Source of the DNA: Malacoraja senta
Taxonomy: Eukaryota
Length of the DNA: 64,000 nt
Assembly (NCBI GenBank): GCA_038087875.1
Contig: CM075988.1
Location: 5,890,001-5,954,000, forward strand
Reading direction: 5' to 3'
A model generated the notes under the pieces. That model was not told the DNA's origin, ran no database searches, and saw only the letters and a list, made by a program, of their open reading frames with translations. Position numbers and translations under genes: made by a program. Of this stretch, positions 4,592-64,000 are shown piece after piece. Within the stretch, counting starts at the first letter, position 1. Each line of letters opens with the position of its first letter.

Positions 4592-6259
4592 GTGAGTTTA
4601 TTAACACAGCTAATATTGACTGTTTATTAGTTGGGCAGAGAATAAACCAATGTAACTGATATAAGGTTGTTCACTATAATTGAATCTTTTAAATGACTGC
4701 TGACCAATTGAGCTGAATAGTTCACTAAGTTATCTTTTCATTAAGCTCTATATATTTCAGACACTGATGGGCAATTTTTTTCACAGCATTGTTTGTCAGC
4801 CTTAGTGCAGACTAACGGTGGTAGGAAGATGGGATACATAGATCTGTCAGGAGGAGCTGGTGTCGTTTATTTTTTCCCCCCATTTTATTTTATTTTTTGC
4901 TCCATTATCCATTATCTCCATTGGCAATAACTGAACATGGCCACAAGTATTGCTTTCCGATTTTCTTTCCCTTAGTGCTGCAGGACATTTCCATGGGCAC
5001 CTTTCAGCATCTCACTCGTGGCCATTTTCCCAATCTGAGCCCAGAAAGTGAGTGTGAATGGCCAATTCAAACGTGGAGGCATCTCAGCAGAGCTGGCCCA
5101 GTCTTCACCCAGAAACCGCACACTTTCCAGTAGAGGTAAGCTGGCTAGGGATTGGGAACTGGAACACTGGCTGTTTTTCTTTTCCCCTTTCCTAGACAGG
5201 GGTGCAGAGCCTAAGAATACCCCCATGTGCTGACCACTCTTATTTCTGTTAAATAAATAACCGTGGAAAGAAAGTGTGTCCATTTTTCTCAGTTCTATTT
5301 GGGTATGCGGGAGTTTTGTTGCAGTGAAAGAAATTAGTGGTGGACTCAAGTCAGAACTCATCACTGTTCCCACCCCCCAAAATATCAGCATATTTGCTTA
5401 AAACTAGTTTTATTGAATGTTTGCAGCTTGTTTTTGATCAATAGAACCGAGTCATTTTTATTAGCCTTTCTGTGTTACTGTCAACATCTCTTTTGCATGT
5501 TGTGTCACACAATACTAGACATGGAATAATCGAGCCACAGTAAACTGATTAGTGATAGTGTTGTGAGTAGATAGAATTACAGTAAATCCTCAAACCTCTT
5601 TATAACGGATATTGGTTATAGCGGAAAGAGCGTCCCGACAGTAATCAGACACAACAGTCTCTTTAAGAACAGGCTGCTAGTTACACTACAGAGGCCATTG
5701 AATCCACCAAATGCAGGAGTAACTCAGAGGGTCAGGCAGCATCTCTGGGGGAAAAAAAGGATTGCTGACGTTTTCGGTCGGGACCCTTCTTCAGACCCAA
5801 AAAGATTCTTCGGGTCACCTTTTTCTCCAGAGATGCTGTCTGACCAACTGAGTTACTCCAGCACTTTGTATCTATCACAGGAAACTGCAGGTTACTTACC
5901 TTAACATCTGTTGTTGGGGAAATGTTAAAACTATTAAAGTTTGTATCACATTAAAAAAAAATCAAGGCAACCAGACAAAACCCAAGTGATTTAATGCAAT
6001 GGAAATAGCGTTTGAACAATTTATTAGAGAGCGTTGATAAAATGCCAGCTTCTATGGATAATGGAGCTGTTTGGGCTGCACTGGAGACTTTGGTCTTTTT
6101 TATTTTTGCACTATATTGGATTTTATATTTATTGAACATTGTGTTATGTATTGAGTGCCATTTTTACAAACCAGTTGTGCTGCTGTTGCGCATAAGACTT
6201 TCTTTGTTCTGTTTTGGCACACAAGACAATAAAACACTCTTTACCCACTGTGGAGAAGA

Positions 6260-8110
6260 AAATAGGTATTCCATATTTGGGTTTCCAACGATAGTTGAAA
6301 AGGTGCCTCATCGAAGATTATTGCAGAGAGTAAAAGCTTGTGGTACAGGAGGCAATGTATTGACTTAGATAGAAGATTAGCTGGATAACAAGAAACACGG
6401 AGGAGGCTGGAATGGGTCTTTTTCTCTTTGTCAAGGTGTAACAGATAGTGTGCCCATCGTAGGCAGTGCTGGGACCTTAACCTTTTACAGTTGATATAAA
6501 TGGATGAAGTAGTTGAAGATGTTGCCAGGTTTGCTGATGAATCAAAGATGGATAGAACATTCTGAAGAAGGGTTTCGGCCCGAAACGTTGCCTATTTCCT
6601 TCGCTCCATAGATGCTGCTGCACCCGCTGAGTTTCTCCAGCATTTTTGTGTACCATGGATAGAACATTAATTTGGGAAGAGGTGAGGAAGCCACAAAATG
6701 GGTTATGTGAGTTCTGGCAAATGGAGTTTGATGGACAAAAGACGTGAAATTGTCTATTAGTTTACTTTGGAGATACAGTGCAGAAACAGACCCTGTGTCC
6801 CTGCCGACCAGCGATTTCCCCCTTACACTTATACTATCCTACACACACTAAGGACAATTTGCAATTATGCCAAGCCAATTAGCCTACAAACCTGTATGTC
6901 TTTGGATAATGTATGTAGGTATTAAGCAAGAAAAATAAAGAAGCCTATTGTCCATGTTATCTGAATGTGAGAAGCTGCAGTCTTCTGAAAGTGGTCTTGT
7001 ACGTGATTTGCAAAAGTCTAGATTTGCAGGTAGAACGTGTAATTGGGGAAACTAACAATCTATTTTGAAGAAATACATTCAGTATTTCAGTAAGAAACTC
7101 AGTCTGAAGAAGGGTCTTGACCTGAAACATCACCTATTCCTTCGCTCCATAGATGCTGCCTCACCCGCTGAGTTTCTCCAGCATTTTTGTCTAACGTATT
7201 TTGTTCGATTAACACAAAATGCTGGAAAAGGGTCTTGGCTCAATGTCACCCATTACTTCTCTACAGAGATGTTGCCTGCCCGCTGAGTTTCTCCAGCATT
7301 TTGTGTTTGTCTTTGTTTTTTAACCAGCATCGCAGTTCCTTCCTACACAATGTATTTTGCTAGGGACATTGATATGAAAGAAAAGAGGTTGTGCTTCAAT
7401 TATATAGAGCACAGGTGACAATGGATACTGTAGTATTAGCACTGTGTAGACCTCTTTATTTAAGGAAAAATATAGATGATGGATGCCGTTTGCAAAAGGT
7501 TTATTGGATTAAAATATTAAGTTGGACATGCTAGGCTTATTCCCCTTTAGAAGAGTAAATGGGGAACTTCACATGGTGAATGTTGAGAGAATGTTTGAAA
7601 CGTATAAAATCCTGAGGAATCTCAACAGTTCCCCAGATACAGTTTTTATAGATCAAGTGTTCGCTTTGTTAAATTTTCTTTTTAAATATCCATAGAAACT
7701 CTAATTTCTGGTCAGCTTTGTCTTCTACTACAATTTTGCGGTACTAAGTATTCTTCCAATCCTTCTTTCCTCTTGATGTGGAGGATATTTCCTTGTGGAA
7801 GAATCCATAGAAAAACACTGAGTGCTGGAGTAGCTCAATGGGTCAGGCAGCATCTCTGTAGGAGGAAATAGATAGGCAACTAGATGTTGCTGTTGAAAAA
7901 TAAGAGACCATCCACTGATATGATATGAGGCACAATTTTTCTGAGGGTTGTGAGTCTGTGAAACTGCAGAACTTGCCCTTCTGAGGAAGAGTCTTAGAAC
8001 ATTGTTAAACGAAGGTTGACAGATTCTTGCTAAGCATGGGTTGGTGCGTTACCAGGAGTCAGTGGAAACATGGAAGTGCAGTTGCAATTAAATTGGCCAT
8101 TTTCTTGAAT
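6260..8110 (+). mobile_element. Old fragmented CR1/L2-type RT, interrupted by SINE and pLTR inserts
   Basis: EKVPHRRLLQRVKACGTGG, RFADESK remnants. Confidence 0.55.
6562..6654 (+). mobile_element. Solo ~93-nt Penelope-pLTR-derived unit with minimal hammerhead core and 14-bp TSD
   Basis: ATGGATAGAACATT at 6548-6561 and 6655-6668; insert starts CTGAAGA AGGG TTTCGG CCC GAAAC GTT. Confidence 0.8.
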
Positions 8111-18200: not shown

Positions 18201-18601
18201 TTCTTGTGTTCTTGTTCTTGCGGACGAATGTCTTGGAAAAATACAAACTGTTGGCAATACTCATCAGGCCAGGCACTGAATGGGGAGAGAAAAGATTAGA
18301 TTGTTTCAGATCAGTAACCTTTCAACAGCTGAAGAAGGATCTCGACCCGAAACGTCACCCATTCCATCTCTCCAGAGATGCTGCATGTCCCACTGGGTTA
18401 CTCCAGCATTTTGTGTCAACCTTTCAACAGAACTAGGTTACCTACTTGGAGTTTTACTTGAAGCCTACACGTTTCCACCTGAGATAAAAATGTTACCAAC
18501 ATAGCCGCGCGAGGTTTCTAATTTTTAGAACCATGAAATGTTTTGTTGAGACGTTAAGAACTGCCAATGTTTCTGAAGTGCTTTATTCATTTCTCTTCCA
18601 G

Positions 18602-18771
18602 TGAAAAGTCGGAGGAGAAATTGGAAAAGTATCTGAACCCCTTGAAGGTACTGCATCGTGTTGAACACCTATTGGAGGAGGATAGCATAATTGTTACAGA
18701 TGGTGGTGATTTTGTGGGCAGTGCTGCCTATATCTTAAAACCCAGAGGACCGCTTCGATGGCTCGATCCTG
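18602..18771 (+). CDS. ILVBL: ILVBL exon: EKSEEKLEKYLNPLKVLHRVEHLLEEDSIIVTDGGDFVGSAAYILKPRGPLRWLDP
   Basis: ttccag/gtaag; DGGDFVG..A...PRGPLRWLDPG motif. Confidence 0.96.
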
Positions 18772-18829
18772 GTAAGTGCTAACTGAATCATCAAAGTTAC
18801 GGGGTATGGAAGAGTTACAGGGTCTTCTA

Positions 18830-19732
18830 CATCCCGTAACTCTGCTCTCACTCCCCATCCCCTCCACTCGTAACAAGGGGAGAATCCCCCTTGTCCTAAC
18901 CTTCCACCCTACCAGCCGTCACGTACAACAAATAATCCTCCGACATTTTAACCACCTCCAACGGGATCCCACCACTGGCCACATCTTCCCATCTCCTCCC
19001 CTTTCGGCTTTCCGCAGACACCACTCCCTCCGTAACTCCCTGGTCAATTCGTCCCTTCCCACCCAAACCACCCCCTCTCCTGGCACTTTCCCTTGCAACC
19101 GCAGGAAATGCTACACTTGTCGCTTTGCCTCCCCCCTTGACTCCATCCAAGGACCCTAGCAGTCTTTCCAGGTGCGGCAGAGGTTCACCTGCACCTTCTC
19201 CAACCTCATCTATTGCATCCGCTGCTCTAGGTGTCAGCTGCTCTACATCAGTGAGACCAAGCGTAGGCTTGGCGATCGCTTCACCCAACGCCTCCGCTCG
19301 GTTCGCAATAACCAACCTGATCTCCCGGTGGCCCAGCACTTCAATTCCCCCTCCCATTCCGAATCCGACCTTTCTGTCCTGGGCCTCCTCCATGGCCAGA
19401 GTGAGGCCCACCGTAAATTGGAGGAGCAGCACCTCATATTTCACTTGGGTAGTTTACACCCCAGCAGTATGAACATTGACTTCTCCAATTTCAGGTAGTC
19501 CTTGCTTTCTCCTTCTTTCCCCTCCCCTTCCCAGCTCTCCAAAGCCCACTGTCTCCGCCTCTTCCTTTCTTCTTCCCGCCCCCCCCCCACCCCCACATCA
19601 GACTGAAGAAGAATCTCGACCCGAAACGTCGCCTATTTCCTTCGCTCCATAGATGCTGCCTCACCCGTTGAGTTTCTCCAGCATTTTTGTCTACCTTCGA
19701 TTTTCCAGCATCTGCAGTTCCTTCTTAAACAC
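18830..19732 (+). mobile_element. Penelope-like element 3' part: RT-thumb/linker, GIY-YIG endonuclease and pLTR with hammerhead-like core
   Basis: IPLVLTFHP, TFPCNRRKCYTC, FTC...NLIYCIRC..C.LLYI.ET.RRL..RF..., followed by CTGAAGA...CCCGAAACGTC at ~19603-19630. Confidence 0.88.
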
Positions 19733-19845
19733 AGATTTGCCAGTGATTTACCACCTTTGTTGGACTCATAACAATGAGTCAAAGTAAGAAAGGGGATCAA
19801 TATTCTGATTGAACGGTGGCAGAACAAAGTTCTTGCTCTCAACAT

Positions 19846-22452
19846 TAGATCAGATTCAGATTCAACTTTATTGTCATTGTGCAGTGTACAGTACAGAGAC
19901 AACGAAATGCAGTTAGCATCTCCCTAGAAGAGCGACATAAATATGAGCAGTAAATAAATAAATCTAATAAATCCTGGTGGGAGGAGTGTCCGGGGGGGGG
20001 GGGGGGTGTGATTGGCAGTCACCGAGGTACAGTGTTGAGTAGTGTAACCGCCGCAGGGAAGAAGCTGTTCCTGGACCTGCTGGTCCGGCAACGGAGAGAC
20101 CTGTAACGCCTCCCGGATGGTAGGAGGGTAAACAGTCTGTGGTTGGGGTGAGAGCAGTCCTTGGCGATGCTGAGCGCCCTTCGCAGACAACGCTTGCTTT
20201 GGACAGACTCAATGGTGGGGAGTGAGGAACCGGTGATGCGTTGGGCAATTTTCACCACCCTCTGCAGTGCTTTCCGGTCGGAGACAGAGCAGTTGCCATA
20301 CCATACTGTGATGCAGTTGGTAAGGATGCTCTCGATGGTGCAGCGGTAGAAGTTCACCAGAATCCGAGGAGACAGATGGACCTTCTTTAGTCTCCTCAGG
20401 AAGAAGAGACGCTGGTGAGCCTTCTTGACCAGAGTTGAGGTATTGTTGGTCCAAGAGAGGTCATCGGAGATGTTGACCCCCAGGAACCTGAAGCTGGAAA
20501 CACGTTCCACCTCCCTCCCGTTAATGTGGATGGGGGTGTGCATGCCGCCCCTAGACTTCCTGAAGTCTACAATGAGCTCCTTGGTCTTCTTGGAGTTAAG
20601 GGCCAGGTTGTTGTCAGCGCACCATGCTGCTAGGAGCTGGACCTCCTCCCTATAGGCCGACTCATCGTTGTTGCTGATGAGGCCAATCACCGTTGTATCA
20701 TCTGCATACTTGATGGTGGTGTTAGTACCATGTACAGGTGTGCAGTCGTAGGTGAAGAGGGAGTAGAGGAGGGGGCTCAGCACACAGCCCTGTGGAACGC
20801 CGGTGTTCAGGGTGAGGGTTGAAGAGGTGTGCTTGTCTAACCTAACAGACGGGTCTGTTGGTTAGAAAGTCCAGTATCCAGTTGCAGAGGGAGGGGTCGA
20901 TGCCCAGGTCACCGAGTTTGGTGATCAGTTTAGAGGGTATGATGGTGTTGAATGCTGAGCTGTAATCGATGAACAGCATTCTTACGTAAGTGTCTCTGTT
21001 GTCGAGGTGGGAGAGGGCGGAGTGAAGTGCCGTTGAGATGGCATCCTCCGTACTCCTGTTCTTGCGGTAGGCAAACTGATAGGGATCCAACGTGGGGGGT
21101 AGGCAGCCTTTGAGGTGTGCCAGGACCAGCCTCTCGAAGCACTTGGCGATGATGGGAGTAAGTGCAACTGGGCGGAAGTCGTTGAGGCTTGCCGCAGTGG
21201 AGTGTTTTGGCACCGGCACGATGGAGGTGGATTTAAGGCACGTGGGCACAACTGCTTGGGCAAGTGACAGGTTGAAGATGTCAGTCCAGACGTCTGTCAG
21301 CTGCGCAGCACAGGCTCTGAGGATGCGCCCGGGGATGCCGTCGGGGCCAGCAGCCTTACGTGCATTAGTCCTACTCAGTGCCACGTACACGTCGAAGGGG
21401 GTGAGTGAGAGGGGCTGGTGATCGGCAGGGAGCACCGCCTTGATGGCCAACTGCCGATTGTCCCTATCGAAACGGCCATAGAAGTGGTTGAGCTCCTCAA
21501 GGAAGGAGGCGTTACTGGATGTGGGGGTGGTGTTGGTGGGTCTAAAGTCCGTGATGGCCTGGATGCCTTGCCACATGCGTCGGGGGTCGGAGTTGTTGAA
21601 GTGCTCCTCAATCCTGAGTTTATGGCAGTGCTTGGCCTTCTTTATGCCCTTCTTCAGGTTAGCCCTGGATGAACTATAGGCTCGGGCATCGCCTGACCTG
21701 AAAGCGGTGTCCCGTGCTTTCAGCAGTAGCCTGACCTCGCTGTTCATCCATGGCTTCTGATTCGGGAATATGGTCACCTGTTTGAGGGAGGTGACACTGT
21801 TGATGGTGGAGTTTATAAAGTCCAGAACAGATGATGTATAGGAGTCAATGTCCGTGTGGGAGTCAAGGGTGGCCTGGGCTGCAAACGCCTTCCAGTCAGT
21901 GTTTCCAAAACACTGCTGAAGTGTGGAGTCCACATCCTCTGACCAGACTTTAACTGTCCTCACAGTGGGTTTAACCCGTCTGATGAGTGGGGAGTACTTT
22001 GGGAGCAGGAACAATGAGAGGTGATCAGACTGTCCAAGGTGGGGGAGGGGGACGGCTTTGTAAGCTTCAGCCATGTTGGTGTAGACTTTGTCCAGTGTCT
22101 TGCCTTCTCTAGTGGCGAAGGAGACATGTTGGTGGAATTTGGGGAGTACAGTCTTCAGGTTGGAGTGATTGAAGTCACCCGCAACAATGAAGGCTGCCTC
22201 GGGGTTGTGAGTCTGTTGTTTGCTAATGGCAGAATGCAGATCTTTCATTGCAAGCTTGGCATTAGCATCAGGAGGAATATAGGCTGCAGTCACAACAGTG
22301 GAGGTAAACTCTCTGGGCAGATAGAACGGTCTGCATCTAACCAAGAGGAACTCTAGGTTAGCTGAGCAGTGACTCTCGATGATGGTGGTGTCCGTGCACC
22401 ATGCTTTGTTTACATAAATGCACAGACCTCCACCTCTGGTCTTACCGGAGGC
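19846..22452 (-). mobile_element. Rex1/Babar non-LTR retrotransposon, 5'-truncated (APE C-terminal part + RT), in ILVBL intron
   Basis: ORFs 20842-22596 and 20019-20783 with AGDFNH, PHLGQSDH, NQKPWM, GVPQG, YADD; 2-nt deletion near 20850 relative to the second copy; 3' tail ACAATAAAGTTGAATCTGAATCTG. Confidence 0.9.
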
Positions 22453-22454
22453 AA

Positions 22455-23230
22455 GACTAAGTAGCCGATTGACCAGGAATGGAAACACAAGGATCCATGA
22501 AATGTCTGTTGATCGATAGGACAATGGAGGAGTGAGAGACAATATCTGGAAGATCCTGGGGGTGCAACTCTTTGAAGATCTGTCTAGGCCCAGCACATTG
22601 ATGCAGTCTCAAAGAAAGCTCTTCAATGCCTCTAATTCCTCACAATGTTGAGGAGATTCAGTATGTTGCTGAACACTTGCATGGACCTCCTCACCATTGA
22701 TGGAAGCACAACTTCAAGAAGGCAGTTACTATCAAAGACCCACACCACTTTCAACTTGCTGCTACAAGCGATAAGAAGGTACAGGAGTCGGAGACCTGGG
22801 CTATCTGCAGCAGGCATCGCAAGACACGTCACAAATACCACCAATACCATCCAGTTTTGCTTTTTAGTTTATTGCTATCGTGTGCACTGACATACAGTGA
22901 TAAGTGAAAATCTCAGCAAAATGCTCCTAAATCACTGGAAGGATCAGTGAAACAATTATCCGTGTCCTCCCTCGGGTCAAGTTCCCCAGCATTAAGACAG
23001 TCTACATTGGGCATGCTGTATCACACACGTCTCACAACAAGCTCTTGAAAAAGATGTTCTGTTATCCCAAACTCTCATGGGAAGGGATTAAGAAAGACAT
23101 TGACAGATTCAAGGATGTGCTTAAAACCTTCATTGAAAAAAAGTATAACATCCCCGTGGAGTCCTGACAGACTACCCATTGATGCCTAAAGTGGCGAGAG
23201 AGCATTCAGGCTGACAATGAGTGCACAAGT
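22455..23230 (+). mobile_element. Degraded RTE-type LINE remnant (continues from ~19735-19845, split by Rex1)
   Basis: Decayed KISWKD/RFKDVLK-like segments (ACAGATTCAAGGATGTGCTTAAA). Confidence 0.45.
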
Positions 23231-32200: not shown

Positions 32201-33885
32201 ATGAATAGGTGACGGGTTTCCACTACTTGAATTTGTTCTACTAAGTGGAAGTGAGATCCCTTGTGCTCACCAGCCTTAATCTAATGCAATCCCCTCTGTT
32301 TCAGTAGAGGTCAGCCGCTGTCAATGCCTCATTCAACAATGGAGCCAGGTTCCTTCAATCAAAGGAAGTCCCCAACCCCCTTGCCCCAGGGGCATTGTGA
32401 CTCAATGACTTTTACCATGTCTTGGCTCGTCCTGGTTTTCCATAAGCCTGAACTAATGCATAGATTCACCCGTGAAACCTTTGCAAGAACATCAACAAAG
32501 AGTGGGAAATTTGGTAAATGGCTTCCATGTGCAATATATTCACAAGGAGCCATGGTACATAGAAAAATGCATTACTTTTGAATCTCAAAATCAGTTGACT
32601 AGAACAGTAGGATCTTTTTTTTTTTAAGTCCATAAATATATAATAGGTGATTGTGAGCTGAGTTGTTCTACCTCCTTTTAATGGTAAATGCTGTGTTTTA
32701 GTATTGTACCTTTTACTGTATATTAAAATAGTTTAATTCAATCTTAGCCTCACTATGTAACTCATCATTTTAACTTCTGTACATCTTGTAGAATATCATG
32801 CTGTGATATGCTATTTTCACTAGTATGCCATCTCTCGACCTGCCAGAGGCAGATACATATTTTTGATTGGGATATTTTTGTGGTTTGTCCTATTTTAGTT
32901 CATTGTATCTCTTAAAACCTGCTTACTTATTTGCTGGACAAATGTTTTTTTGGTTACCTTTTGCTAACTTACTCGTGTTTTCTTTGCCCAGCTTGCTTGC
33001 CACTACACTACTCCCTCTCTACAGATTGTATTTGGCCTAGATCTTGCTTGATTAATTTAGCTGACATGCATTCTTCACTTTCTATTTCCCATCATATTTT
33101 CCACCTCTCTACTCTAAGGAGCTCGACCTTCGAACTTGAAGTTCTCGACCTTAATGTATCTGTACCAGAAGCAGTGTCCCAAAAGGTCACTCATTGATTT
33201 GTCACAGATCATATTTTATCCTATCTTTTATCCCATAGAAGTTAGCCTTCCAGTTTAGTTTGCATAGTTTCTCCACGTTGAACAAAATAGATATACACGG
33301 CAGTGGACAGTGTAAGGGTGGGAAGTACAGTATGACTTCACTAGATTGATTAAAAGACACAGCCTGGAAACGGGTCCTACACCCCACCGAGTTCACACTG
33401 ACCATCAATCATCTGCGCACTGGTTCTATGTCACCACACTTTTGCATCCACTCCCTGCACACTAGGGCCAACTAAGAGAACAAGTAAAAAAACATACTAG
33501 CACGAGAAAGACACAAAATGCTGGAGTAACTCAGTGGGTTGGGCAGCATCTTTGGAGAACATGGATGGAACATGGACGGGTGACATTTCGGGTCAGGAAC
33601 CCTTCTTCAGACTGATTGCAGGGATTTCATTTCACCCCAGGCAATCATCCCAAGCATCCCGACCCAAAACGTCACCTATCCATGTTTTCCAGGAATGCTG
33701 CCTGATCTGCTGAGGTATTGCAGCATTTTGTGTCTTTCCAGAGTAAACTAGCACCTGCAGTTCCTTGTCCTTTTACAAAATAGAATGGAAGAAGTAGTCT
33801 CCGTAGTAGGAATGTGTGCTCAGCCTTAATAAACTCCCTTATTTCAGAGAATGACTATGAACAGAGATAATGCAAATCGAGTTCC

Positions 33886-34589: not shown

Positions 34590-34990
34590 AACATCACTTC
34601 AACTCTCCCTCCCATTCCCAATCTGACCTTTCAGTCCTGGGCCTCAACCATTGCCAGAGTGAGGCCCAGTGCAAATTGGAGCAACAGCACCTCATATTTT
34701 ACTTGGGTAGATTGCACCCCAACGGTATGAACGTTGACTTCTCTAACTTCAGATAGCCCTTGCTTTCTCTCTCCATCCCGTCCCCCTTCCCAGTTCTCCC
34801 ACGAGGCTTACTGTCTCCGCCTACATTCTTTCCTTGTCCTGCCCCTCCCCTGACATCAGTCTGAAGAAGGGTCTCGACCTGAAACTTTGCCAATTCCTTC
34901 TCTCCATAGATGCTGCCTCATCCGCTGAGTTATTCCGGCATTTTGTGTCTACCTTCGATTTACCAGCATCTGCAGTTCTTTCTTAAACAT
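34590..34990 (+). mobile_element. Penelope-like 3' fragment plus pLTR
   Basis: Nucleotide match to 19337-19730 (GACCTTTCAGTCCTGGGCCTC...CTGAAGAAGGGTCTCGACC). Confidence 0.8.
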
Positions 34991-35761
34991 CCCCTATCAC
35001 CATCACCCTTGCTGTGGAAGGATGTAAAACGCCCAGAAGCAGACTGTTTCCGCTCGTTATAAAAATGCTGGAAAAACTCAGCAGGTCAGGCTGCAACTGT
35101 GGGAAGAGAAACAGAGTTAATGTCTCACATCACAAACCCCTTGTCAGAATTGGGAGGGAGCCAAAAGAGGCTGGAGGAAAGAGGATATCTTTACTTGGAT
35201 AAAACCAGGATGAACATGGGAATTAGTGGTAAACTAGGTTATCACGTCGGCAAGTGAATGGAAGCAGTTAGGAGAGTGAGAACATAGACATAAAGAATGT
35301 AGGAGCTGCAAAATACAGAGCAGGAAGATGGGGAATAGAGGTCAGGCTAGACAAATCGACCACTCTCCCCATGGTCACCCCACTTTCACCCTATCAAAGA
35401 CATTCCTCTTCCCGCAGCTGAACAAGCCTCTTTTGTCTCCTTCCCAGTTCTGATGATGGGACTTTAACCCAAAACATTAACTCTGTTTTTCTTCCCGCAG
35501 TTGCGGGGACCTGCTGGGATTTTCCAGCACTTGTATTCGTACCTGGCCGAAACACTTGTGCTTCAGGGTGGTTTACGTCCTTCTACAACAAGGGTGATGG
35601 TTTAGATCTCTGATCAGGTGAAATTACCATCCTTCTCATAAACAGACATGGAACCAAAAGAGGCCATTCAGTCCATTGATCCCATGTTGGCTCTTTGAAA
35701 TGCCTATTTAAAAAATCAGTCCTAGTTCGGAGCCATGTTCTCTGAAAAAAGCTATCCAGGA

Positions 35762-38838: not shown

Positions 38839-39466
38839 GTAAATTGTGCTTAGTGTGTGTAAGGTAGTGTGAGTGTGCAGGGATCGCAGATTCGATGGGC
38901 CAAAGGGCCTGTTTCCGCGCTGTATCTCTAAGCTAAACTAAACATTCTTCAATGAGCAGAGGGTTACTGGATGTCTAGGACTTGATACCGGTTCATTTAT
39001 TGGATATATAGGAGGAGATGGTGAGAGGCTGGGGAAGGACTAGAATAGTCAGGCCTGGAGATAATAAGAACATCAGTCAGGATTTCACCGTAAATGACGC
39101 GGAGGAAGAGAAAGGAAATGTTACCGAAGTGGAATTGTGCCGATGCTGTTTATTCAGAAAGTGAAGGAAAGAGCTGCAGATGCTGCTTTAAATCGAAGGT
39201 AGACATAAAATGCCGGAGTAACTCAGCGGGACAGGCAGCATCTCTGGAGAGAAGGGTCTCGACCCGAAACGTCACCCATTCCTTCTCTCCGGAGATGCTG
39301 CCTGTCCCGCTGAGTTACTCCGGCATTTTGTGTCTACTGCCGTTTATACTGAGTTCATCTTCAGGAGACCACAGAGAACAGGGCCCCTGGAGAGTACTCT
39401 AACATTCCACGCATTCATAGCTCTCCACATACCTCAGTTCATGGCCATTTCCAATGGGGCACTCAC

Positions 39467-39573: not shown

Positions 39574-42500
39574 CTGTTCCCGAAAGGAATTTGGAGCAAG
39601 TGAATTAATGGACAACCATCGTCTACAGACACAGAACCAAAACCAAGCAGCTACATTCCCTCCACAGGCTCACTAAGTTCCTCCAGCACTTTGTACTTTG
39701 CTCCAGGTTCCAGCATCTACAGTTTAGTTTCATTTAATGTGGAGATACAGCGTGGAAACAGGCCCTTCGGCCCAACGACTCTGCTCACACACACACACAC
39801 ACACGGAACATTTTTTTTTCCATTTACACCAAGCCACTTAACCCACAAACCTGTACGTCTTTGGAGTGTGGGAGGAAACCGAAGATCTTTGACAAAACCT
39901 GAGCACCTGGAGAAAATCACACAAGTCGCAGGTAGAAAACTCTTCACAGGCAGCACCCGTAGTCGGGATCAAACCCGGGTCACAGGCGCTTTAAGGCAGC
40001 AACTCTACCGCAGCCCGTGCAGTTCCTTTTGTCTTCAACTGCCAGTCAATCTTTTGTACAAAGGAAGGTACACAAAAATGCTGGAGAAACTCAGCGGGTG
40101 CAGCAGCATCTATGGAGCGAAGGAGATAGGCAACGTTTCGGGCTGAAACCCCTGTTCAGACAAAAGATGTGTCTGATCATTGAGGTTCAGAGTACCTTAG
40201 CAGCTGGAGGAGACAACCTTGCTGTTTTACTTCACCATCAGGCATTTCACACCTGCCAATCGGAACAGCCTCCGAAATGGCCTTTCATTTTCATTCAGCA
40301 TAAAACGGACCACATTACATCAGCCCACCTCCTTGATACAGCTAGAATCATAGTCATACAGCATGGAAACAGACCCTTCACCCCAAGTCGTCCATGCTGA
40401 CTGAGATGCCCCATTTATGATAGACACAAAGTGCTGGAATACTTCAGTGGGTCGAGCAACAACTCTGGAGAAAAGGATCAGATGCCATTTCAGGTCGGAA
40501 CCCTTCTTTAGACTGAAAATAGAAGGGTGGGGTGGGGTGGTCCTATCTAGTTAGTCCCATTTGTACCTTGTGAGCTGTGACCTCATTTGCTTGTGTTTGG
40601 CCCATGTCACACTAAACCTATCCTATCCATGTACCTGTCCAAGTGTCTTTTAAATGTTCTTAGAGTACTTGCCGCAACTACTTCCTCTGGCGACTTGTTC
40701 TATATACACACCACCCTCTGATTCTTAATTCCCTTACCTTCAGTAAAAGCCTCTGTGCATTCACAGTATCTATTTCACCTCAGGACTTTGTACACTTCCA
40801 TTAGATCATCCCACAGCCTCCTGTGCAGCCAAGGAATAAAGTCCTAGTCTGCCCTATAGCTCAGGCCCTCGAGTCCTGGAAACATCCTTGTAAATCTTCA
40901 CTGCAGTCTTTCCAACAACATCCTACAGCAGGGTGACCAAAACTGAACAGAATACTCCGTGTGGCTTCACCGACGTCTTGTGCAACGGTAACATCAAGGT
41001 TTCTCAGAGGTGAGTTTACCTTGCGAAGTACTCATCCCCTCTCCCTTGGTGAGACCGGATGAGAGTTCTCTTGAATCATCCATATCTTGCACCTCGCATG
41101 CAACAAAAGCTTTTCACTGTACCTCGGTACGTATGCTAGTAAACTAAACTTAAACTAAAACTCTGCTCTCAGCCCTCCTCCTGCGTTCCCTTGATCCTCG
41201 CCTTCCAACCACCCTCTGCATTCAACAATTTCTGCCAGCTCCAACAAGATTTCACTACCACACATGTACCTCTTCTCCCCAAATGTCATAAGGACTCAAA
41301 TTTGCCAACCTTAAGGTAACTCACTCACTCTTTCTGTTTGTATATCAGAACAGGCCATGGCCTCTCCTCATATTACACACTCTCCATGAATCTCTGCTGA
41401 ACCTTGATTGCACTCACACTACAGTAAGTGTAATCCTTCGGTGAGACTAGACTTGTGACCCTCGGTCTGCTTGCAGTCTCACCAGCGTCCACTTTTATCC
41501 TTCAACTCAAATCTTCTTGCGATAAACATCAACCTTCCTTTTCCCCTGACTCTCAGTCCGAAGGGTCTTGACCCGAAACGTCACCCATTCCATCTATTTC
41601 TCCATAGATGCTGCCTGACCTGCTGAGTTACTCCAGCTTTTTGCATCTATATACAGTTTACATTCCTAATTGCTTGCTCAACACAATGTTAACTTTCAGC
41701 ATCTGAACATTAATCTCTCAGCATCTACAAAACACTCGCCTCTTCTTTTTTTTTTTAGACCAAAATAGATATCATATTTTTCCTCATTCCATTCCATTCG
41801 TCCATTTATTTAGCCTATGTTCTTTTATTGTGCATCCTCCTCACAATCCAACTTAGTACAAACTGTACAATCAAGGTCTCCTAATCCAAATCAGTAATAT
41901 GGACACAAAAAGCTGGAGTAATTCAGCGGGGCAGGCAGCATCTCTGGAGAGAATGACTTTTCGGGTCGAGACCCTTCTCAATCTGGACAGCTCCTTGTGA
42001 CTCCAGTTACAATGCAATCCTACCTGAAATCACCTGTTCATTCCTAGTCTCTGCTTTCTCTCTGCTAACCATTCATCAGCCCATGTCAATATATCGCTCT
42101 GAAGAAGGGTCCCAACCCAAAACGTTACCTATCTTTGTTCTCCAGGGATGCTGCCTAACTCACAGAGTTACTCCAGCACTTTGTATATTTCAATATATTC
42201 CATCCAGTTCTCATGCACACTCATTTTGTTGGAACTATATCAAATACCTTCTGGAAATACGAATACCGCATCCATTCATTCATTCATTTACTTTAGTTTA
42301 TTGTCACATGTACCGAGGTACAGTGAAAAGCTTTTGTCGCATGCTAACCAATTAGCGGAAAGATAATACATGATTACAATCGAGCCATTCACAGTGTACA
42401 GATACTGTATGTGATAAGGGAATAACGTTTAGTGCAAGATAAAGCCAGTAAAGTCTGATCAAAGATGGTCCAATGAGGTAGATAGTAGTTCAGGACTGCT

Positions 42501-43539
42501 ACTTGTCTATACCAATAGTTACATTCCTACAAACTTTAACAGATTTATAAAATATGACTTATTTTCATAAATCCGTGTTGATTCAGCCCAGTCCCATTAT
42601 AATTTTTCAAGTGTTCTGATACCCTTTTTTTTATACTGTGTGACTTTGCTGTAAAGTTCAACGTTTGGAATGATTCAAGCATGAAAGTAAGGTTGACTTT
42701 TATAGGTTGTCTTTCATGGCGTCAAAATGTCCCAAAATGAATCAAATATTTTTTTTGTGAAAACAAAGTTAAATTCTGAAAGTAATGATTAAAAATATGA
42801 AGACAACTGTCTGACAGTGAAAAAGGTGCTGGTGAAAATAGGATTGGTGGAATAACGATGAAAGTACAACAGATAATCGCATGGTTGAAATGTTGACGTC
42901 TGACGATAGAAATGTTGAAAAAGTAACTGAACTGAATGGTGAGAGTGTGATTAAAAAGCTAGGGATTGGATGAAGGAAGAGCAGGGAAGACATGGAATAG
43001 AGGAATGAGAGAGACACAAAGTGCTGGAGTAACTCAGCGGGTCAGACAGCACCTCTGGAGAAAAAGAATAGGTAAGGTTTCGGGTCGAGACCCTTCTTCA
43101 GACTTGAATGAGATGTGGAGATGTGAGGAAAATGTTCAATTCAATTCAATTCAACTTTAATGTCATTGCACAAATACTGAGTATGGGTACAACGAAATGC
43201 AGTTTTGCGTCAGGAAAATGTTGATGCTGAAAGTGTTATATTGACACGCGGTGAAGGTATGATAAAGAAAGATTAATATAGGTCATCATTGTAGAACATG
43301 AATGTGAGCAAATGTATAACTATGGGCAGGTATAACTATGGCAACTGATAAATTGGGCAGGGTTTTGATTAATGACACTGCTCAGTTTGTTAGTTAGTTA
43401 GTTAGTTACAATACAATACCGTTTATTGTCATTTGAACCTCAAATGAAGTTCAAACGGAATTTGGTTTCTGCAGTCAAACAACAAGAAAAAAAAAAACCC
43501 AAGACACACAATAAATACAATTTACACAAACATCCATCA

Positions 43540-45997
43540 AGCTAATGCTAAGCTTGCAATGAAAGATCTGCATTCTGCCATTAGCAAACAACAGACTCAC
43601 AACCCCGAGGCAGCCTTCATTGTTGCGGGTGACTTCAATCACTCCAACCTGAAGACTGTACTCCCCATATTCCACCAACATATCTCCTTCACCACTAGAG
43701 AGGACAAGACACTGGACAAAGTCTACACAAACATGGTTGAAGCTTACAAAGCCACCCCCCTCCCCCACCTTGGTCAGTCTGATCACTTCTCATTGTTCCT
43801 GCTCCCTAAGTACTCCCCACTCATCAGACATGTTAAACCCACAGTGAGGACAGTTAAAGTTTGGTCAGAGGAGGCGGACTCCACACTCCAGCAGCGTTTT
43901 GGAAACACTGACTGGAATGCGTTTGCAGCTCAAGCCACCCTTGACTCCCACACGGACATTGACTCCTATACATCCTCTGTTTTGGACTTTATCAACACCA
44001 TCATCAACAGTGTCACCACTCTCAAACGGATCACCACATTCCCGAACCAGAAGCCATGGATGAACAGTGAGGTCAGGCTACTGCTGAAAGCACGGGACAC
44101 CGCTTTCAGGTCAGGCGATGCTCGTGCCTACAGTTCATCCAGGGCCAACCTGAAGAGGGGCATCAAGAAGGCCAAGCATAGCTACAAGCTTAGGATTGAG
44201 GAGCACTTCAATAACAACTCCGACCCCCGACGCATGTGGCAAGGCATCCAGGCCATCACGGACTATAGATCCACCAACACCACCCCCACATCGAGTGACG
44301 CATCCTTCCTTGAGGAGCTCAACCACTTTTATGGCCGCTTTGACAGGGACAATCAAGAGATGGCACTCAAGGCTGTTCTCCCTGCTGATCACCAGCCCCT
44401 CACACTCACACCCTACGACGTGTATGTAGCACTGAGTAGGATTAATGCACGTAAGGCTGCTGGCCCTGACGGCATCCCCGGGCGTGTCCTCAGGACCTGC
44501 GCTGCGCAACTGACAGACGTCTGGACTGACATCTTCAACCTGTCACTTGCCCAAACAGTTGTCCCCACGTGCCTTAAAACCACCTCCATCGTGCCGGTGC
44601 CAAAACACTCCACTGCAGCGAGCCTTAATGACTTCCGCCCAGTTGCACTTACTCCCATCATCACCAAGTGCTTCGAGAGGCTGGTCCTGGCTCACCTCAA
44701 AGGCTGCCTACCTCCCACACTGGACCCCTATCAGTTTGCCTACCGCAAGAACAGGAGTACGGAGGATGCCATCTCAACGGCACTCCACTCCGCCCTCTCC
44801 AACCTCGACAACACAAACACCTACGTGACAATGCTGTTCATCGACTATAGCTCAGCATTCAACACCATTATCCCCTCAAAACTGATCACCAAACTCAGCG
44901 ACCTGGGCATCAACCCCTCCCTCTGCAACTGGTTACTGGACTTCCTAACTAACAGACCCCAGACTGTTAGGTTGGACAACCACACCTCTTCAACCCTCAC
45001 CCTGAACACCGGCGTTCCACAGGGCTGTGTACTGAGCCCCCTCCTCTACTCCCTCTTCACCTACGACTGCACACCTGTACATGGTACTAACACCATCATC
45101 AAGTATGCAGATGATGCAACGGTGATTGGCCTCATCAGCGACAACGGTGAGTCGGCCTATAGGGAGGAGGTTCAGCTCCTAGCAGCATGGTGCACTGACA
45201 ACAACCTGGCCCTTAACTCCAAGAAGACCAAGGAGCTCATTGTGGACTACAGGAGGTCTAGGGGCGGCACGCACACCCCCATCCATATTAACGGGACGGA
45301 GGTGGAATGTGTTTCCAGCTTCAGGTTTCTGGGGGTCAACATCTCTGATGACCTCTCTTGGACCCACAATATATCAATACTGGTCACGAAGGCTCACCAG
45401 CGTCTCTTCTTCCTGAGGAGACTAAAGAAGGTCCATCTGTCTCCTCAGATTCTGGTGAACTTCTACCGCTGCACCATCGAGAGCATCCTTACCAACTGCA
45501 TCACAGTATGGTATGGCAACTGCTCTGTCTCCGACCGGAAAGCATTGCAGAGGGTGGTGAAAACCGCCCGACGCATCACCGGATCCTCACTCCCCTCCAT
45601 TGAGTCTGTCCAAAGCAAGCGATGTCTGCGAAGGGCGCGCAGCATCGTCATGGACTGCTCTCATCCCAACCACAGACTGTTTACCCTCCTCCCATCCAGG
45701 AGGCGCTACAGGTCCCTCCGTTGCTGAACCAGCAGGTTCAGGAACAGCTTCTTCCCTGCGGCTGTTACACTAATGAACTCTGCACCTCGGTGATTGCCAG
45801 TCACCCCCCCCCCCCGGGCACTCCTACCCCCAGAAAAATTGCGCTACTGATACTGCTGTATATATATATTTTTTACTGCTCATTATTCCTAAGTTCGCTC
45901 TTCTGGGTGAGATGCTAACTGCATTTTGTTGTCTCTGTACTGTACCCTGCACAATGACAATTAAAGATTGAATTGAATTGAATTGAATTGAATTGAA
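43540..45997 (+). mobile_element. Rex1/Babar non-LTR retrotransposon, 5'-truncated, 722-aa APE-RT ORF, in ENDOU-like intron
   Basis: ORF 43559-45727 with AGDFNH, GVPQGCVLSP, YADD; premature TGA ~20 codons before the end seen in copy 1; (ATTGA)n tail. Confidence 0.9.
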
Positions 45998-55659: not shown

Positions 55660-56842
55660 AGGAAGCTGGCAAACAGGAAGCAAAGAGTAGGAGTAAACGG
55701 GTCCTTTTCACAATGGCAGGCAGTGACTAGTGGGGTACCGCAAGCAGCTCAGTGCTGGGATCCAGCTATTTACAATCTATATTAATGATCTGGATGAGGG
55801 AATTGAAAGCAACATCTCCAAGTTTGCGGATGACACTAGCTGGGGGGCAGTGTTAGCTGTGAGGAGGATGCTAGGAGACTGCAAGGTGACTTGGATAGGC
55901 TGGGTGAGTGGGCAAATGTTTGGCAGATGCAGTATAATGTGGATAAATTTGAGGTTATCCACTATTATCTAAATGGTGGCCGATTAGGAAATGGGAGATG
56001 CAGCGAGACCTGGGTGTCATGGTACACCAGTCATTGAAAGTAGGCAGGTACACAAAAATGCTGGAGAAACTCAGCGGGTGCAACAGCATCTATGGAGCAA
56101 AGGAAATAGGTAACGTTTCGGCCAAAACCCTTCTTCAGACTTCCATTGAAAGTAGGCATGCAGGTGCAGCAGGCAGTGAAGAAAGCGAATGGTATGTTGG
56201 CTTTCATAGCAAGAGGATTTGAGTATAGGAGCAGGGAGGTTCTACTGCAGTTGTACAGGGTCTTGGTGAGACCACACCTGGAGTATTGCGTACAGTTTTG
56301 GTCTCCAAATCTGAGGAAGGACATTATAGCCATAGAGGGAATGGCAGAGAAGGTTCACCAGACTGATTCCTGGGATGTCAGGACTTTCATATGAAGAAAG
56401 GACTGGATAGACTTGGCTTATACTCGCTAGAATTTAGGAGATTGAGAGGGGATCTTATAGAAACGTACAAAATCTTATGGGGTTGGACAGGCTAGATGCA
56501 GGAAGATTGTTCCCAATGTTGGGGAAGTCCAGGACAAGGGGTCACAGCTTAAGGATAAGGGGGAAATCCTTTAAGACCAAGATGAGGAAAAACTTTTTCA
56601 CACAGAGAGTGGTGAATCTCTGGAACTCTCTGCCACAGAGGGTAGTTGAGGCCAGTTCGTTGGCTATATTTAAGAGGGAGTTAGATGTGGCCCTTGTGGC
56701 TAAGGGGATCAGGGGGTATGGAGAGAAGGCAGGTACGGGATACTGAGTTGGATGATCAGCCATGATCATATTGAATGGCGGTGCAGGCTCGAAGGGCCGA
56801 ATGGCCTACTCCTGCACCTATTTTCTGTGTATCTATGTATCT
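55660..56842 (+). mobile_element. CR1-type LINE RT and 3' end
   Basis: LFTIYINDLDEG, ISKFADDT, LVRPHLEYCVQFWSP, FFTQRVVNLWNSLP. Confidence 0.88.
56047..56143 (-). mobile_element. Solo ~97-nt pLTR/hammerhead unit with 15-bp TSD inside a CR1
   Basis: CATTGAAAGTAGGCA at 56032-56046 and 56144-56158. Confidence 0.8.
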
Positions 56843-59920: not shown

Positions 59921-60164
59921 GTGGGTGCCGGATGGGTGCGGAACAAACTCAAGGGTTCCTGTGTAAGGGATGGGCTGTGGTTCATGTCTGCTACACAAAT
60001 TGAAGTGTCATTGGCTGTGGACCACAGTCCTCTCGATGTATTTCATATGCTTTGCATGGAACATACTATCATCCTTTTCTGCATGAGCTAGTCAGGCAGG
60101 GACAGGTCGGACAGACAAGGAGTCTGGAATTGCTCTCCCAGCATGCACTGCAGGCAGGCACAAA

Positions 60165-60745
60165 AAGCTGGAGTAACTCAGCATTTGTGTCTGGCAGCAA
60201 CTCTGGAGAGAAGGAATGGGGTGACGTTTCGGGTCGAGACCTTCTTCAGACTAGTTAGGGATAAGAGAAACGAGAGATATAGATGCTGATGTAGAGAGAT
60301 AAAGGATGATGAATGAAAGATATGCAAAAAAGTAACGATGATAAAGGAAACAGGCCATTGTTAACTGTTTGTTGGGTGAGAAGGAGAAGCTGGTGTAACT
60401 TGGGTGGGCGGAGGGATAGAGAGAGAGGGAATGGAGGGGCTACCTGAAGTTACAGAAATCAATATTCATACCACTGGGCTGTAAGCTGCCCAAGCAAAAT
60501 ATGAGTTGCTGTTTCTCCAATTTGCATTTAACCTCACTGACAATGGAGGAGACCCAGGACAGAAAGGTCTGTGTGGGAATGGGAAGGAGAATTAAAGTGT
60601 TTGGCAACTGGGAGATAAGGTTGGTTCAGGCAGACTGAGCGAAGGTATTCCGCGAAACGATCGGCCAGTCTACGAGTCCACATCTTGTACAACAGATACA
60701 GTAGATGAGGTTGGAGGAGGTACAAGTGAACCTCCTACACATGTA
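60165..60745 (-). mobile_element. Penelope-like GIY-YIG fragment plus pLTR
   Basis: RRFTCTSSNLIYCICCTRC, RLADRFAEYLRSV, VAKHFNSPSHSHTDLSVLGLLHCQ. Confidence 0.8.
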
Positions 60746-61360: not shown

Positions 61361-61424
61361 AATTCCTTCTTCGGTATGATTATGGGGGGTGACAAGTTGG
61401 AAGAGAGGAGCTGCAGGCCAATCC

Positions 61425-62220
61425 ATCCAGGGACCCCAACAGTCCTTTCAGTTGAGGCAGAGGTTCACTTGCATCTCCTCCCACTTCATCTACTTCATCC
61501 GTCGTTCTCGGGAGGGCTCCGATGTATCAGCGAGACCAGCGATCGTTTCGCGGAACACTTACGCTCAGCCTGAACACTTGGCCTACATGAGCTCCTGGTT
61601 GCCAAACGTTTAACTCCCATCCCAACCCCACATTGACCTTTCTGTCCTGGGCCTCCTCCACTGTCAGAGTGAGGCCACACCCATATTGGAGGAACAACAC
61701 CTCATATTTCACTTGGGCAGCTTACAACCCAGCGGTATGAACGTTGATTTCTCTCATTTCAAGTAACCCTTGCATCCTTTCTCTCCCCCCCCTCCCCCAC
61801 CCTAGTCATCCTACTAGTTCCACTGTAGATAAAAATGATGGAGAAACTCAGCGGGTGAGGCAGCATCTATGGAGCAAAGGAAATAGGCAACGTTTCGGGT
61901 CGAGACCCTTCTTCAGACTTATTCAGACTACTAGTTCCACTATTCACATCCTTGTATCTCATTTGTTCTCACCCCTTCCCCAGCCAACAATGGACCATTG
62001 TGGGCTCCACCCTTCCTTGGTCATCTGTTACCAGCCCTGTTTTGTTCTGTCCTTTTACCTTCCTCCAGTTCTCTCCCCTCTACCTGCAGCCAGAAGAAGG
62101 CACCGGACATGAAACGTCACCCATCCTTTTCCTCCAGAGATGCGGGCTGATCTGCCGTTACTCCAGCACTTTTTGTCCATCTTGGGTATATACCGGCATC
62201 TGCAGCTCCTTTCTACACAT
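61425..62220 (+). mobile_element. Penelope-like GIY-YIG fragment plus pLTR (inverted relative to 60165-60745)
   Basis: SIQGPQQSFQLRQRFTCISSHFIY, DRFAEHLRS, DLSVLGLLHCQ; pLTR at ~62090-62220. Confidence 0.78.
61825..61927 (-). mobile_element. Solo ~103-nt pLTR/hammerhead unit with 14-bp TSD
   Basis: CTACTAGTTCCACT at 61811-61824 and 61928-61941. Confidence 0.8.
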
Positions 62221-63055
62221 CAATATTAGCGTAATCTCCTCTGTCTGTACATGATCTATAACCCTCCATTCCCTGCGTATCTATGTGCCTATCTGAAAGC
62301 CTCTTAAACGTTACTATTGTGTCTGAAACCCACCACCCACTGTGGTGGGTGGCAGACGGCCCGTACAAAACGGCCCGTACATCTCCTTTAAAGATGTCCC
62401 CTCTTACCTTAAAGATATGTCCTCTAGTCTTTAACAGTCCCAACCTGGGAAAAAGGTTCTGACTGTCTACCCGACCCTATTTATGCCTCTCATAATTTTA
62501 CATACTTCAACCAGGTCTCACCTCAACCTGTAATGCTCCAGAGAAAACGATGCAAGTTTGCCCAAGAGTTTAAGAAAGAACTGCAGATGCTGGAAAAATC
62601 GAAGGTAGACAAAAATGCAGGAGAAACTTAGGGTCGTCACCTATTCCTTCGCTCCATAGATGCTGCCTCACCCGCTGAGTTTCTCCAGCATTTTTGTCTA
62701 CCTTGAAGTTTGTCCAACCGCTCATTATAGCAAAGACCCTCTAATCCGGGCAGCATTCAGTTGAATCTCATTACACCCATCTTCAAAGCTTCCACTTCCT
62801 TTCTGCAATGGGGCACCCAGAACTGTGTACTGTACTCCAAATGCGCTCCAAGCAAAGTGCTATATTCCTGACTTATACTCAGTGGCCCGACCGATCAAGG
62901 TTAGGATACCATATGCCTTCCTCGCCACTCTATGTTCTTGCATTGCTATTTTCAGAGAGCTATGTATTTGGAACACAACATCCCTGAGAGGGAAACGTAA
63001 TAAAATTACAACCAATGCCAGAGATCACAAGTTGAGATGTAGAGTGCGGACTCAC

Positions 63056-63179: not shown

Positions 63180-64000
63180 CACAGCCCTGGCCAATCCCCT
63201 GGACTTGAGGAACCATGCGGGCTGGTATATATATCCTGGAAATATCGTTGGCAGTGTCAATACTCGTGTTTCTGTAAACATATACGCGATAAAGTTGCTG
63301 AGCGACAGATCCTGGCTGAGCCAAATATCCATATTAATATTTAATGGGAAATGAGGAGGCAAGACTGGGAATGAGTCAAGGCACTACACCTGTACTGACA
63401 GTGGGAAACTACAGTCTGACAGGTAGTAGACACAATATGCTGGAGTAACTCAGCGGGACAGGCAGCATCTCTGGTGAAAAGGGAAAGGATGATATTTTGG
63501 GCCACAATGTCACCTATTCCTTATCTCCAGAGATGCTGCCTCCCCCCGCTGAGTTACTCCAGCATTTTGTGTCTGTCTTCGGTGTAAACCAGCATCTGCG
63601 TATAATCTGATAGGTACTGTGTGCTGAAGGAGTGTGCGGTTATGTCCACAAAAGTAATTCAGACAACGTTTTAGGGGTAGAGGGGGGGGGGGGGGGGAGG
63701 GGCGGTGGCTTCTCCTCACTTCAGCCCGGCTTCAGGCACCAGCCTGCCCACTGTCATGGCATGGGTAAATGGCAATGTAGGGAGGAACTGCAGATGCTGG
63801 ATTACAACGAAAATAGACACAACATTCTGGAGTAACTCAGTGGTCAGACAGGATCTCTGGAGAAAAGGAATTGGTGTCATTTTCTCACAAAGACGCCCGG
63901 GTTTGTAGGTCAGTTTGAAGAACGGTCTCGACCCGTAAACGCTGTCAATTCCTTTTCTCCAGAGATGCTGTCTGATCCGCTGAGTTACTCCAGCACTTTG

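Follow-up and report, generated by a model that had tools for sequence, protein, structure and literature searches.

A 93-nt insert lies at 6562–6654 on the forward strand of the window, the 64-kb stretch of Malacoraja senta DNA analyzed here. It carries a hammerhead motif at its head and sits between exact 14-bp repeats. The locus raises the question of which element the insert comes from, how units of such constant size are made, and whether the ribozyme takes part. The initial annotation viewed it as a retrozyme-like SINE, propagated by Penelope enzymes, possibly through self-cleaved or circular RNA. Positions within the unit are numbered from the C of CTGAAGA (+1 = position 6562), and the insert thus spans +1 to +93, without tail.

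Solo tips and their parent element

Copies which stand alone, here called solo tips of a pseudo-LTR (pLTR), and their target-site duplications (TSDs) are as follows.

6548–6561, + strand: left TSD of the 6562 insert, 14 bp, in an old LINE-like fragment
6562–6654, + strand: solo pLTR tip, 93 nt, youngest variant, no tail
6655–6668, + strand: right TSD of the 6562 insert
56047–56143, − strand: solo tip, 97 nt, 15-bp TSD (56032–56046, 56144–56158)
61825–61927, − strand: solo tip, 103 nt, 14-bp TSD (61811–61824, 61928–61941)
18329–18417, + strand: solo tip, 89 nt, 13-bp TSD, start at +1
42095–42189, + strand: solo tip, 95 nt, 9-bp TSD (weaker)
43011–43105, − strand: solo tip, 95 nt, 8-bp low-complexity TSD (weaker)
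40067–40159, − strand: solo tip, same young variant as the 6562 insert (96% identity to it), no TSD called

The insert starting at CTGAAGA and its perfect duplication were found again in the sequence as first described, and so were the recurrences at 56047–56143 and 61825–61927, both on the minus strand. The three copies named in the initial annotation, which did not list the one at 18329–18417, are real, but the unit is far commoner. A profile built from seven window copies gave 50 matches; 41 exceed 30 bits, nine weaker ones being dropped, and jointly cover 4,187 bases (6.5% of the window). Tips standing alone are the commonest class there. The ends had been called similar; the copies are alike at the 5′ end, but their 5′ ends are not identical. 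The 56047–56143 copy has element sequence from −2, plus two extra purines. The 61825–61927 tip is nested within an older copy linked to a reading frame (ORF), and has a short repeat of its own first bases at its head. This repeat (61916–61927) follows the terminal AG of the TSD, and suggests an aborted microhomology-primed second strand.

In the LINE-like frames flanking the inserts the TSD peptide is repeated once (MDRT at 6548, LKVG at 56047). Only the duplicated peptide recurs in the host frame, and the copies are therefore true insertions into sites which once held one copy. TSD scores of at least 10, with a 5′ end between −25 and +12, were found in 4/41 copies, and in 2/558 mismatched flank pairs used as chance control. 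At 7099–7349 a solo tip directly adjoins an inverted stub, itself next to a tailed copy; three flanking strings of 11–13 bp resemble one another.

The same sequence is found downstream of protein frames.

18830–19498, + strand: 3′ end of a Neptune-type Penelope-like element (PLE) frame, CX4CxxC linker and endonuclease domain
19499–19602, + strand: pyrimidine-rich spacer, about 104 nt, from stop codon to hammerhead, missing in solo tips
19603–19695, + strand: ORF-linked tip copy
19696–19731, + strand: optional 36-nt tail with a second CAGCAU, able to replace the first in the 3′ stem
34592–34989, + strand: second ORF-linked copy, 5′-truncated, tailed
60153–60739, − strand: third ORF-linked copy, about 586 nt, imperfect TSD, no tail, ends approximate
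61422–62219, + strand: fourth ORF-linked copy, older, tailed, split by the 61825–61927 solo tip

The frame at 18830–19498 has one internal stop, ends with the stop codon 19496–19498, and shares 61% identity with P0001, a whale shark protein carrying RVT_1 and GIY-YIG domains; a Pfam search with the window fragment alone gave no match. CX2-5CxxC linkers before the endonuclease mark the Neptune or Nematis clades (PMC8557442). The term Neptune-type, preferred here to Nematis, follows vertebrate distribution rather than an RT tree. The 6562 insert is 90% identical to 19603–19695. Since tip and spacer follow the stop of a GIY-YIG-type frame, the unit is the outer part of a PLE pseudo-LTR in a cartilaginous fish. 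The terminal repeats of endonuclease-bearing (EN+) PLEs are matched in the position after a GIY-YIG frame, the linker, the 36-nt tail and the inverted partners. On sequence grounds, the insert is the end piece of a Neptune-type PLE. Its identity to the ORF-linked tip and the TSD calls uphold the description of a hammerhead-bearing pLTR tip inserted alone, and solo tips were most likely inserted by the PLE reverse transcriptase and endonuclease. The motif had also been said to end the Penelope at 18830–19732; it does follow the endonuclease frame, at 19603, and this copy extends 36 nt past the tip, to 19731.

Tips follow the end of a protein frame in 4/41 cases, and all four ORF-linked copies are 5′-truncated. 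The window contains no RT-half sequence. No full-length chondrichthyan Neptune element or ORF was found, and translations of the tip match none of 114 N-termini of relatives. The tip was also considered as an ORF start, and discarded: the ATG at +51 shifts frame between variants and matches no protein. Searches for relatives of P0001 in viral contigs found none. Pattern scans for the tip gave no hits in viral contigs, and none in two scans of metagenomes; nine loci in bacterial records, from scans of prokaryote genomes, are taken as chance.

Tips are also arranged in fold-back pairs.

62568–62713: head-to-head fold-back pair of tips, 12-bp TSD with one mismatch
5688–5892, 33503–33767, 39161–39346, 63425–63599, 63776–63999: similar fold-back pairs

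One partner of the head-to-head pairs is often tailed, which is a known PLE pattern (PMC3846280). Tandem arrays of the tip are missing from the window, which holds only two close same-strand pairs, not arranged as head-to-tail repeats.

Ends of the tips and the spacer

The 5′ ends of the 41 copies were classed by eye. Eighteen start within −5 to +3 of CUGAAGA, a spread of about 9 nt; 8 run upstream into spacer or ORF, and 15 start further inside, 11 of these in fold-backs. Compared with uniform ends, the clustering has a binomial p of 8e-11 to 1e-6 (entered as 18/34). Short solo copies with a called TSD all start (6/6) at −2 to +1 of the element sequence, counted in a set in which three copies carry 1–8 extra bases and two have TSDs of only 8–9 bp. 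The hammerhead is predicted to cut between 6589 and 6590, after +28. None of the 41 copies starts at +29, the nearest starts being at +24 to +27, and permuted copies were not seen in the window. The proposal that the 5′ ends, unlike those of ordinary truncated Penelope insertions, are not random is supported by the 18/41 starts in a 9-nt interval.

Contigs of four sequencing runs (X1, X6, X15, X18) were aligned to 18800–19760; X1 may be the window's own sample, and X15 and X18 are putative RNA runs. At the 5′ loose ends, the consensus keeps the head of the hammerhead, then decays to A/T-rich letters. Contigs with such ends (X1 186, X6 241, X15 29 and 26, X18 12 at 19603) are among the 24 loose ends listed out of more than 3,600, a set from which contigs continuing upstream are excluded by construction. 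The summed contig depth of the tip is 2.6, 5.0, 16 and 4.8 times that of the ORF end in the four runs; contig depth does not equal copy number, and these ratios are inflated if ORFs of other subfamilies fall under 80% identity. Tip depth is 1.5–4.8 times the extrapolated truncation slope, an excess within about 1–3 residual standard deviations. Contigs from the four runs point the same way as the clustering in the window. The 5′ clustering is real in the window, and probably genome-wide. Literature searches found no report of such clustering for PLE tips; Figure S2 of PMC11167929, on genomic ends, could bear on the point, and Repbase or Dfam may list the short unit.

Before the X6 loose end at 19616, the consensus immediately upstream of CTGAAGA is complementary to the strand that follows the cut, and would give an 8-bp helix I, possibly by cDNA folding back on the 2-bp helix I. 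The case has one informative letter only (G at −2), found also in the window copies at 31923 and 5794.

TSD-bounded copies end 3′ at +87 to +94, others at the tail. The loose ends listed for the contigs include 19687–19696 in all four runs, and 19731 in X6, X15 and X18. There are thus two 3′ end sites, 36 nt apart. In the Anolis PLE, reverse transcription starts inside the RNA at two sites, and the tail is the stretch between them (Frangieh et al., PMC11167929). The two 3′ ends found here fit the Anolis finding directly, and are the known PLE tail signature of internal RT starts. Folding predicts a stem just 5′ of the first 3′ end.

6610–6645, + strand: predicted 8-bp 3′ stem, AGAUGCUG paired with CAGCAUUU

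When the tail is present, the 3′ strand of the predicted stem is swapped, in the folding, for a near-identical one in the tail, and the stem could set the two start sites. For none of the three stems (helix I, helix II, 3′ stem) was covariation stronger than in shuffled alignments (48–180 of 500 shuffles).

The spacer at 19493–19602, as similar parts of 34592–34860 and 60250–60420, features a donor-like CAG/GTAG over the stop codon, a pyrimidine tract, and a branch-like YYRAC only 5–6 nt before a YAG abutting the hammerhead. Donor, tract, YYRAC and YAG are marks which we take to be splice-like. The layout resembles the position of the intron in the Drosophila pLTR. No GT..AG joint occurs among the 15 joints listed of 513 in the contigs of the four runs, and no intron-less copy among the 41 window tips. 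The X6 joint 19465–19603 was considered as a splice and rejected, being a deletion-type join. Joints from 19682/19693 back to 18958, in X1, X6 and X15, link the end of a tip to a 5′-truncated start, and denote a shared partial tandem.

Origin of the fixed-length copies

The reading put first here, held about evenly between belief and doubt, is that the 93-nt units are run-off copies of an RNA starting just before the hammerhead. The PLE reverse transcriptase would begin copying within the RNA, some 93 nt away from its 5′ end, and continue until the RNA ends. This RNA would begin at about −5 to −2, where two CA steps (at −5 and −2) resemble initiators; it would normally be the element's own transcript, with the ORF downstream, and nicked target DNA would prime the copy. 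Because the enzyme's start site would lie only some 93 nt downstream of the RNA start, priming at the near repeat would run off the end and insert a fixed short copy. Priming at the far repeat of a longer RNA would yield the ORF-linked truncated copies. The identity to PLE tips, the TSDs, the two fixed 3′ ends, the clustered 5′ ends and the lack of ends at the cut site argue for run-off copying. In Drosophila, Penelope has a transcription start and an internal promoter within the pLTR (PMC2377424), and PLE pLTRs overlap the ORF start (PMC11167929, PMC3846280). As no full-length shark or ray element was found, and no N-terminal match, an ORF following the tip is a feature borrowed from other PLEs. 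Of the eight copies which reach −2, three also match at −3 and −4 (chance p about 0.01); the ends, scattered over some 9 nt, are thus at odds with one start at −2. Against run-off copying, moreover, TSD-bounded copies lack the lone extra G which cap copying would leave, and the Drosophila start maps about 120 nt upstream of the end of an intron abutting the hammerhead (PMC2377424, PMC4209133).

Alternatively, the RNA would be longer, and the enzyme would tend to fall off on reaching the C-rich spacer, or where a branch or a bound protein lies just upstream of the hammerhead, a few bases being trimmed on joining. Solo ends would then be preferred 5′ truncations. Such a copying barrier is possible, yet doubtful. 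It would account for the lack of solo ends beyond −5, the C-run beginning near −7, and for copies ending inside the spacer (40413, 41555); it agrees with the splice-like marks and with the intron of the Drosophila Penelope, which ends at helix I (PMC4209133). The boundary is however crossed by 8/41 copies, the joints and copies surveyed include neither a splice nor an intron-less form, and the branch-like motif is only 5–6 nt from the AG. Were the enzyme to stall at helix II, copies would stop near +20 instead of +1.

Solo tips could also form an independent SINE-like lineage: a signal within the 93 nt would drive their transcription, and the PLE enzyme would copy the RNA anew, with no cleavage; this is unlikely, but compatible with run-off copying as a second step. 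Solo tips share the 3′ end with an autonomous partner, are flanked by TSDs and have no ORF, as SINEs; for a tRNA-, 5S- or 7SL-derived head, no Rfam match was found over the unit at E up to 5. In other PLEs, pLTRs are reported to hold internal promoters and to suffice in cis (PMC3846280, PMC2377424). The copies at 6562, 56138 and 40159, which make up the youngest variant, form a clade (support 100/97), are 93–96% alike and are all solo (3/3), so that this variant could be a lineage in itself. A count of three out of three is unremarkable when only 4/41 copies are ORF-linked, and the three young copies have no common head. In the tree, solo copies belong to four or more sequence variants and alternate with ORF-linked ones, a pattern in favour of a by-product made repeatedly. 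Solo TSD copies need 3–4 label changes, no fewer than shuffled labels, in a tree in which support is low outside the young clade, so that one origin may still hold, and the solo copy at 61916 is 92% identical to the ORF-linked 19603 tip. A stronger version appears rather unlikely: the 93-nt tip would be a parasite complete in its own right, with its own transcription start, the sites where the Neptune enzyme binds and begins internal copying, and a hammerhead fold left uncut. Solo copies would seed further copies. The outcome would be a Penelope-driven SINE class of less than 100 nt, which arose as a strong-stop-like by-product and makes up several percent of the DNA of rays and sharks.

If a full-length insertion lost its interior because its two direct tips recombined, with the TSD kept, TSD-bounded tips with a fixed 5′ end would also result. 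Ninety-three nt is a short length for recombination between direct tips. The ORF-linked copies are 5′-truncated (4/4), and no RT half is found in the window. Solo pLTRs are mentioned in rotifer PLEs, and those ascribed to recombination had no TSDs (PMC3846280); we regard this origin as very unlikely.

Going back to run-off copying, a very abundant product of fixed length records in the genome where its template begins and where it ends. Should the 5′ limit correspond to the RNA start, it maps the Neptune promoter, and internal priming would also fire at the 5′ copy of the repeat, as if a strong-stop product were inserted.

The hammerhead motif and related elements

6562–6589, + strand: minimal type I hammerhead motif, CUGAAGA, extra A, 4-bp helix II (6570–6581), GAAAC-GU-U

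The minimal descriptor comprises CUGANGA, an extra base, G10.1-C11.1, GAAA and a palindromic CG at 15–16 (Cervera and de la Pena, PMC4209133). All these features are found in the tip motif, a predicted ribozyme. Helix I measures 0–2 bp, the main family having 2 bp and the 6562 copy a single U-G pair, below the 4–5 bp of the published motifs. Helix II is present, as initially drawn, but is better viewed as a 4-bp stem with a 4-nt loop, closed by U-G at 6562 and by U-A in 21/26 aligned copies. The claim that core nucleotides are better conserved than the rest of the unit holds in a sample of 28 hand-picked copies, biased to those found via the core motif: non-CpG core columns are 0.94 conserved, the others 0.84 (p about 0.002). 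An older variant of the tip, found at 35449–35532 and 35062–35132, reads CUGAUGA, has a larger loop on helix II and a helix I of 4 bp, and makes its own branch. Core conservation, along with an older variant which changes the free N7 and has a 4-bp helix I, argues that the motif is under selection in the source elements. Rfam has no hammerhead match over the unit. The Rfam scan of the window gave eight weak matches, none to a ribozyme; three are fold-back hairpins of the tip repeat matched to a microRNA model, one is to a plastid model.

A self-cleaved or circular RNA intermediate had been proposed. Cleavage would yield monomers running from +29 round to +28; no such starts, permuted copies or arrays are found, hence the inserted RNA was not cut at this site. 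The core is intact at the head of the unit, and the hammerhead rides along uncut. A minimal retrozyme, whose template would be a self-cleaved linear or circular monomer, agrees with the conserved core and with the solo retrozyme monomers and PLE origin described in vertebrates, yet is highly improbable, since the tips are not tandem, helix I does not exceed 2 bp in the main family, solo copies arise in several subfamilies, the core is buried when the monomer is folded in silico (z 0.1), the dimer is predicted to adopt a form other than the hammerhead dimer, and hammerhead mutants of the Anolis PLE insert normally (PMC11167929); the retrozyme route is largely refuted by the end positions.

Judged from its features, the unit belongs to the PLE terminal-repeat class, and would work as a 5′-limited PLE insertion, SINE-like in form. 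The 5′-truncated insertions and pLTRs of EN+ Neptune PLEs (PMC8557442, PMC3846280) are alike in GIY-YIG frame and linker, 30–40 bp tail, inverted partners and TSDs. In contrast to these, 5′ ends in the window do not vary freely, but pile up in 9 nt, and the tip-only class is the commonest. The Poseidon element of Anolis, PAc (PMC11167929), similarly features two internal starts about one tail length apart, some 0.1 kb downstream of a hammerhead whose cleavage is not needed. PAc belongs to another clade; its main text describes no solo product of fixed length, and its ORF start at helix II is not seen in the window tip. Minimal type I hammerheads of PLEs (PMC4209133) share the core, the extra base after A9, G10.1-C11.1 and the palindromic 15–16, and are mostly single motifs from truncated PLEs, as here. 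They differ in helix I, which measures 4–5 bp (2 bp in Drosophila) as opposed to 0–2 bp, and the 6562 variant has U at the cut position.

Non-LTR retrozymes (PMC7229834; bioRxiv 10.64898/2026.07.22.740005) are also short, non-coding, hammerhead-bearing and PLE-related, and occur as monomers as well. The window tips, unlike these, are not tandem, have no canonical hammerhead, end away from the cut site, and are each bounded by a TSD. Assignment to this class was set aside, as neither a tandem layout with at least two hammerheads nor a monomer bounded by cut sites is found. The pLTR, tail, hammerhead, TSD, inverted partners and lone minimal hammerheads have all been published already; only the 5′ clustering has no report among those found. 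The transposition route of PLEs and the role of the hammerhead are stated to be open (PMC8557442). The fixed-length product also argues that the numerous lone minimal hammerheads of vertebrate genomes are carried along uncut, and do not represent retrozyme circles.

The window features other coding regions. An open frame at 18600–18772, ending at a splice donor, is probably a host exon; it recalls a thiamine-dependent lyase (ILVBL-like), an identity which Pfam and PDB searches did not confirm. LINE-type reverse transcriptase frames reside at 43448–45727 (759 aa; Pfam RVT_1 and ALKBH8_N) and at 20842–22608 (588 aa; RVT_1).
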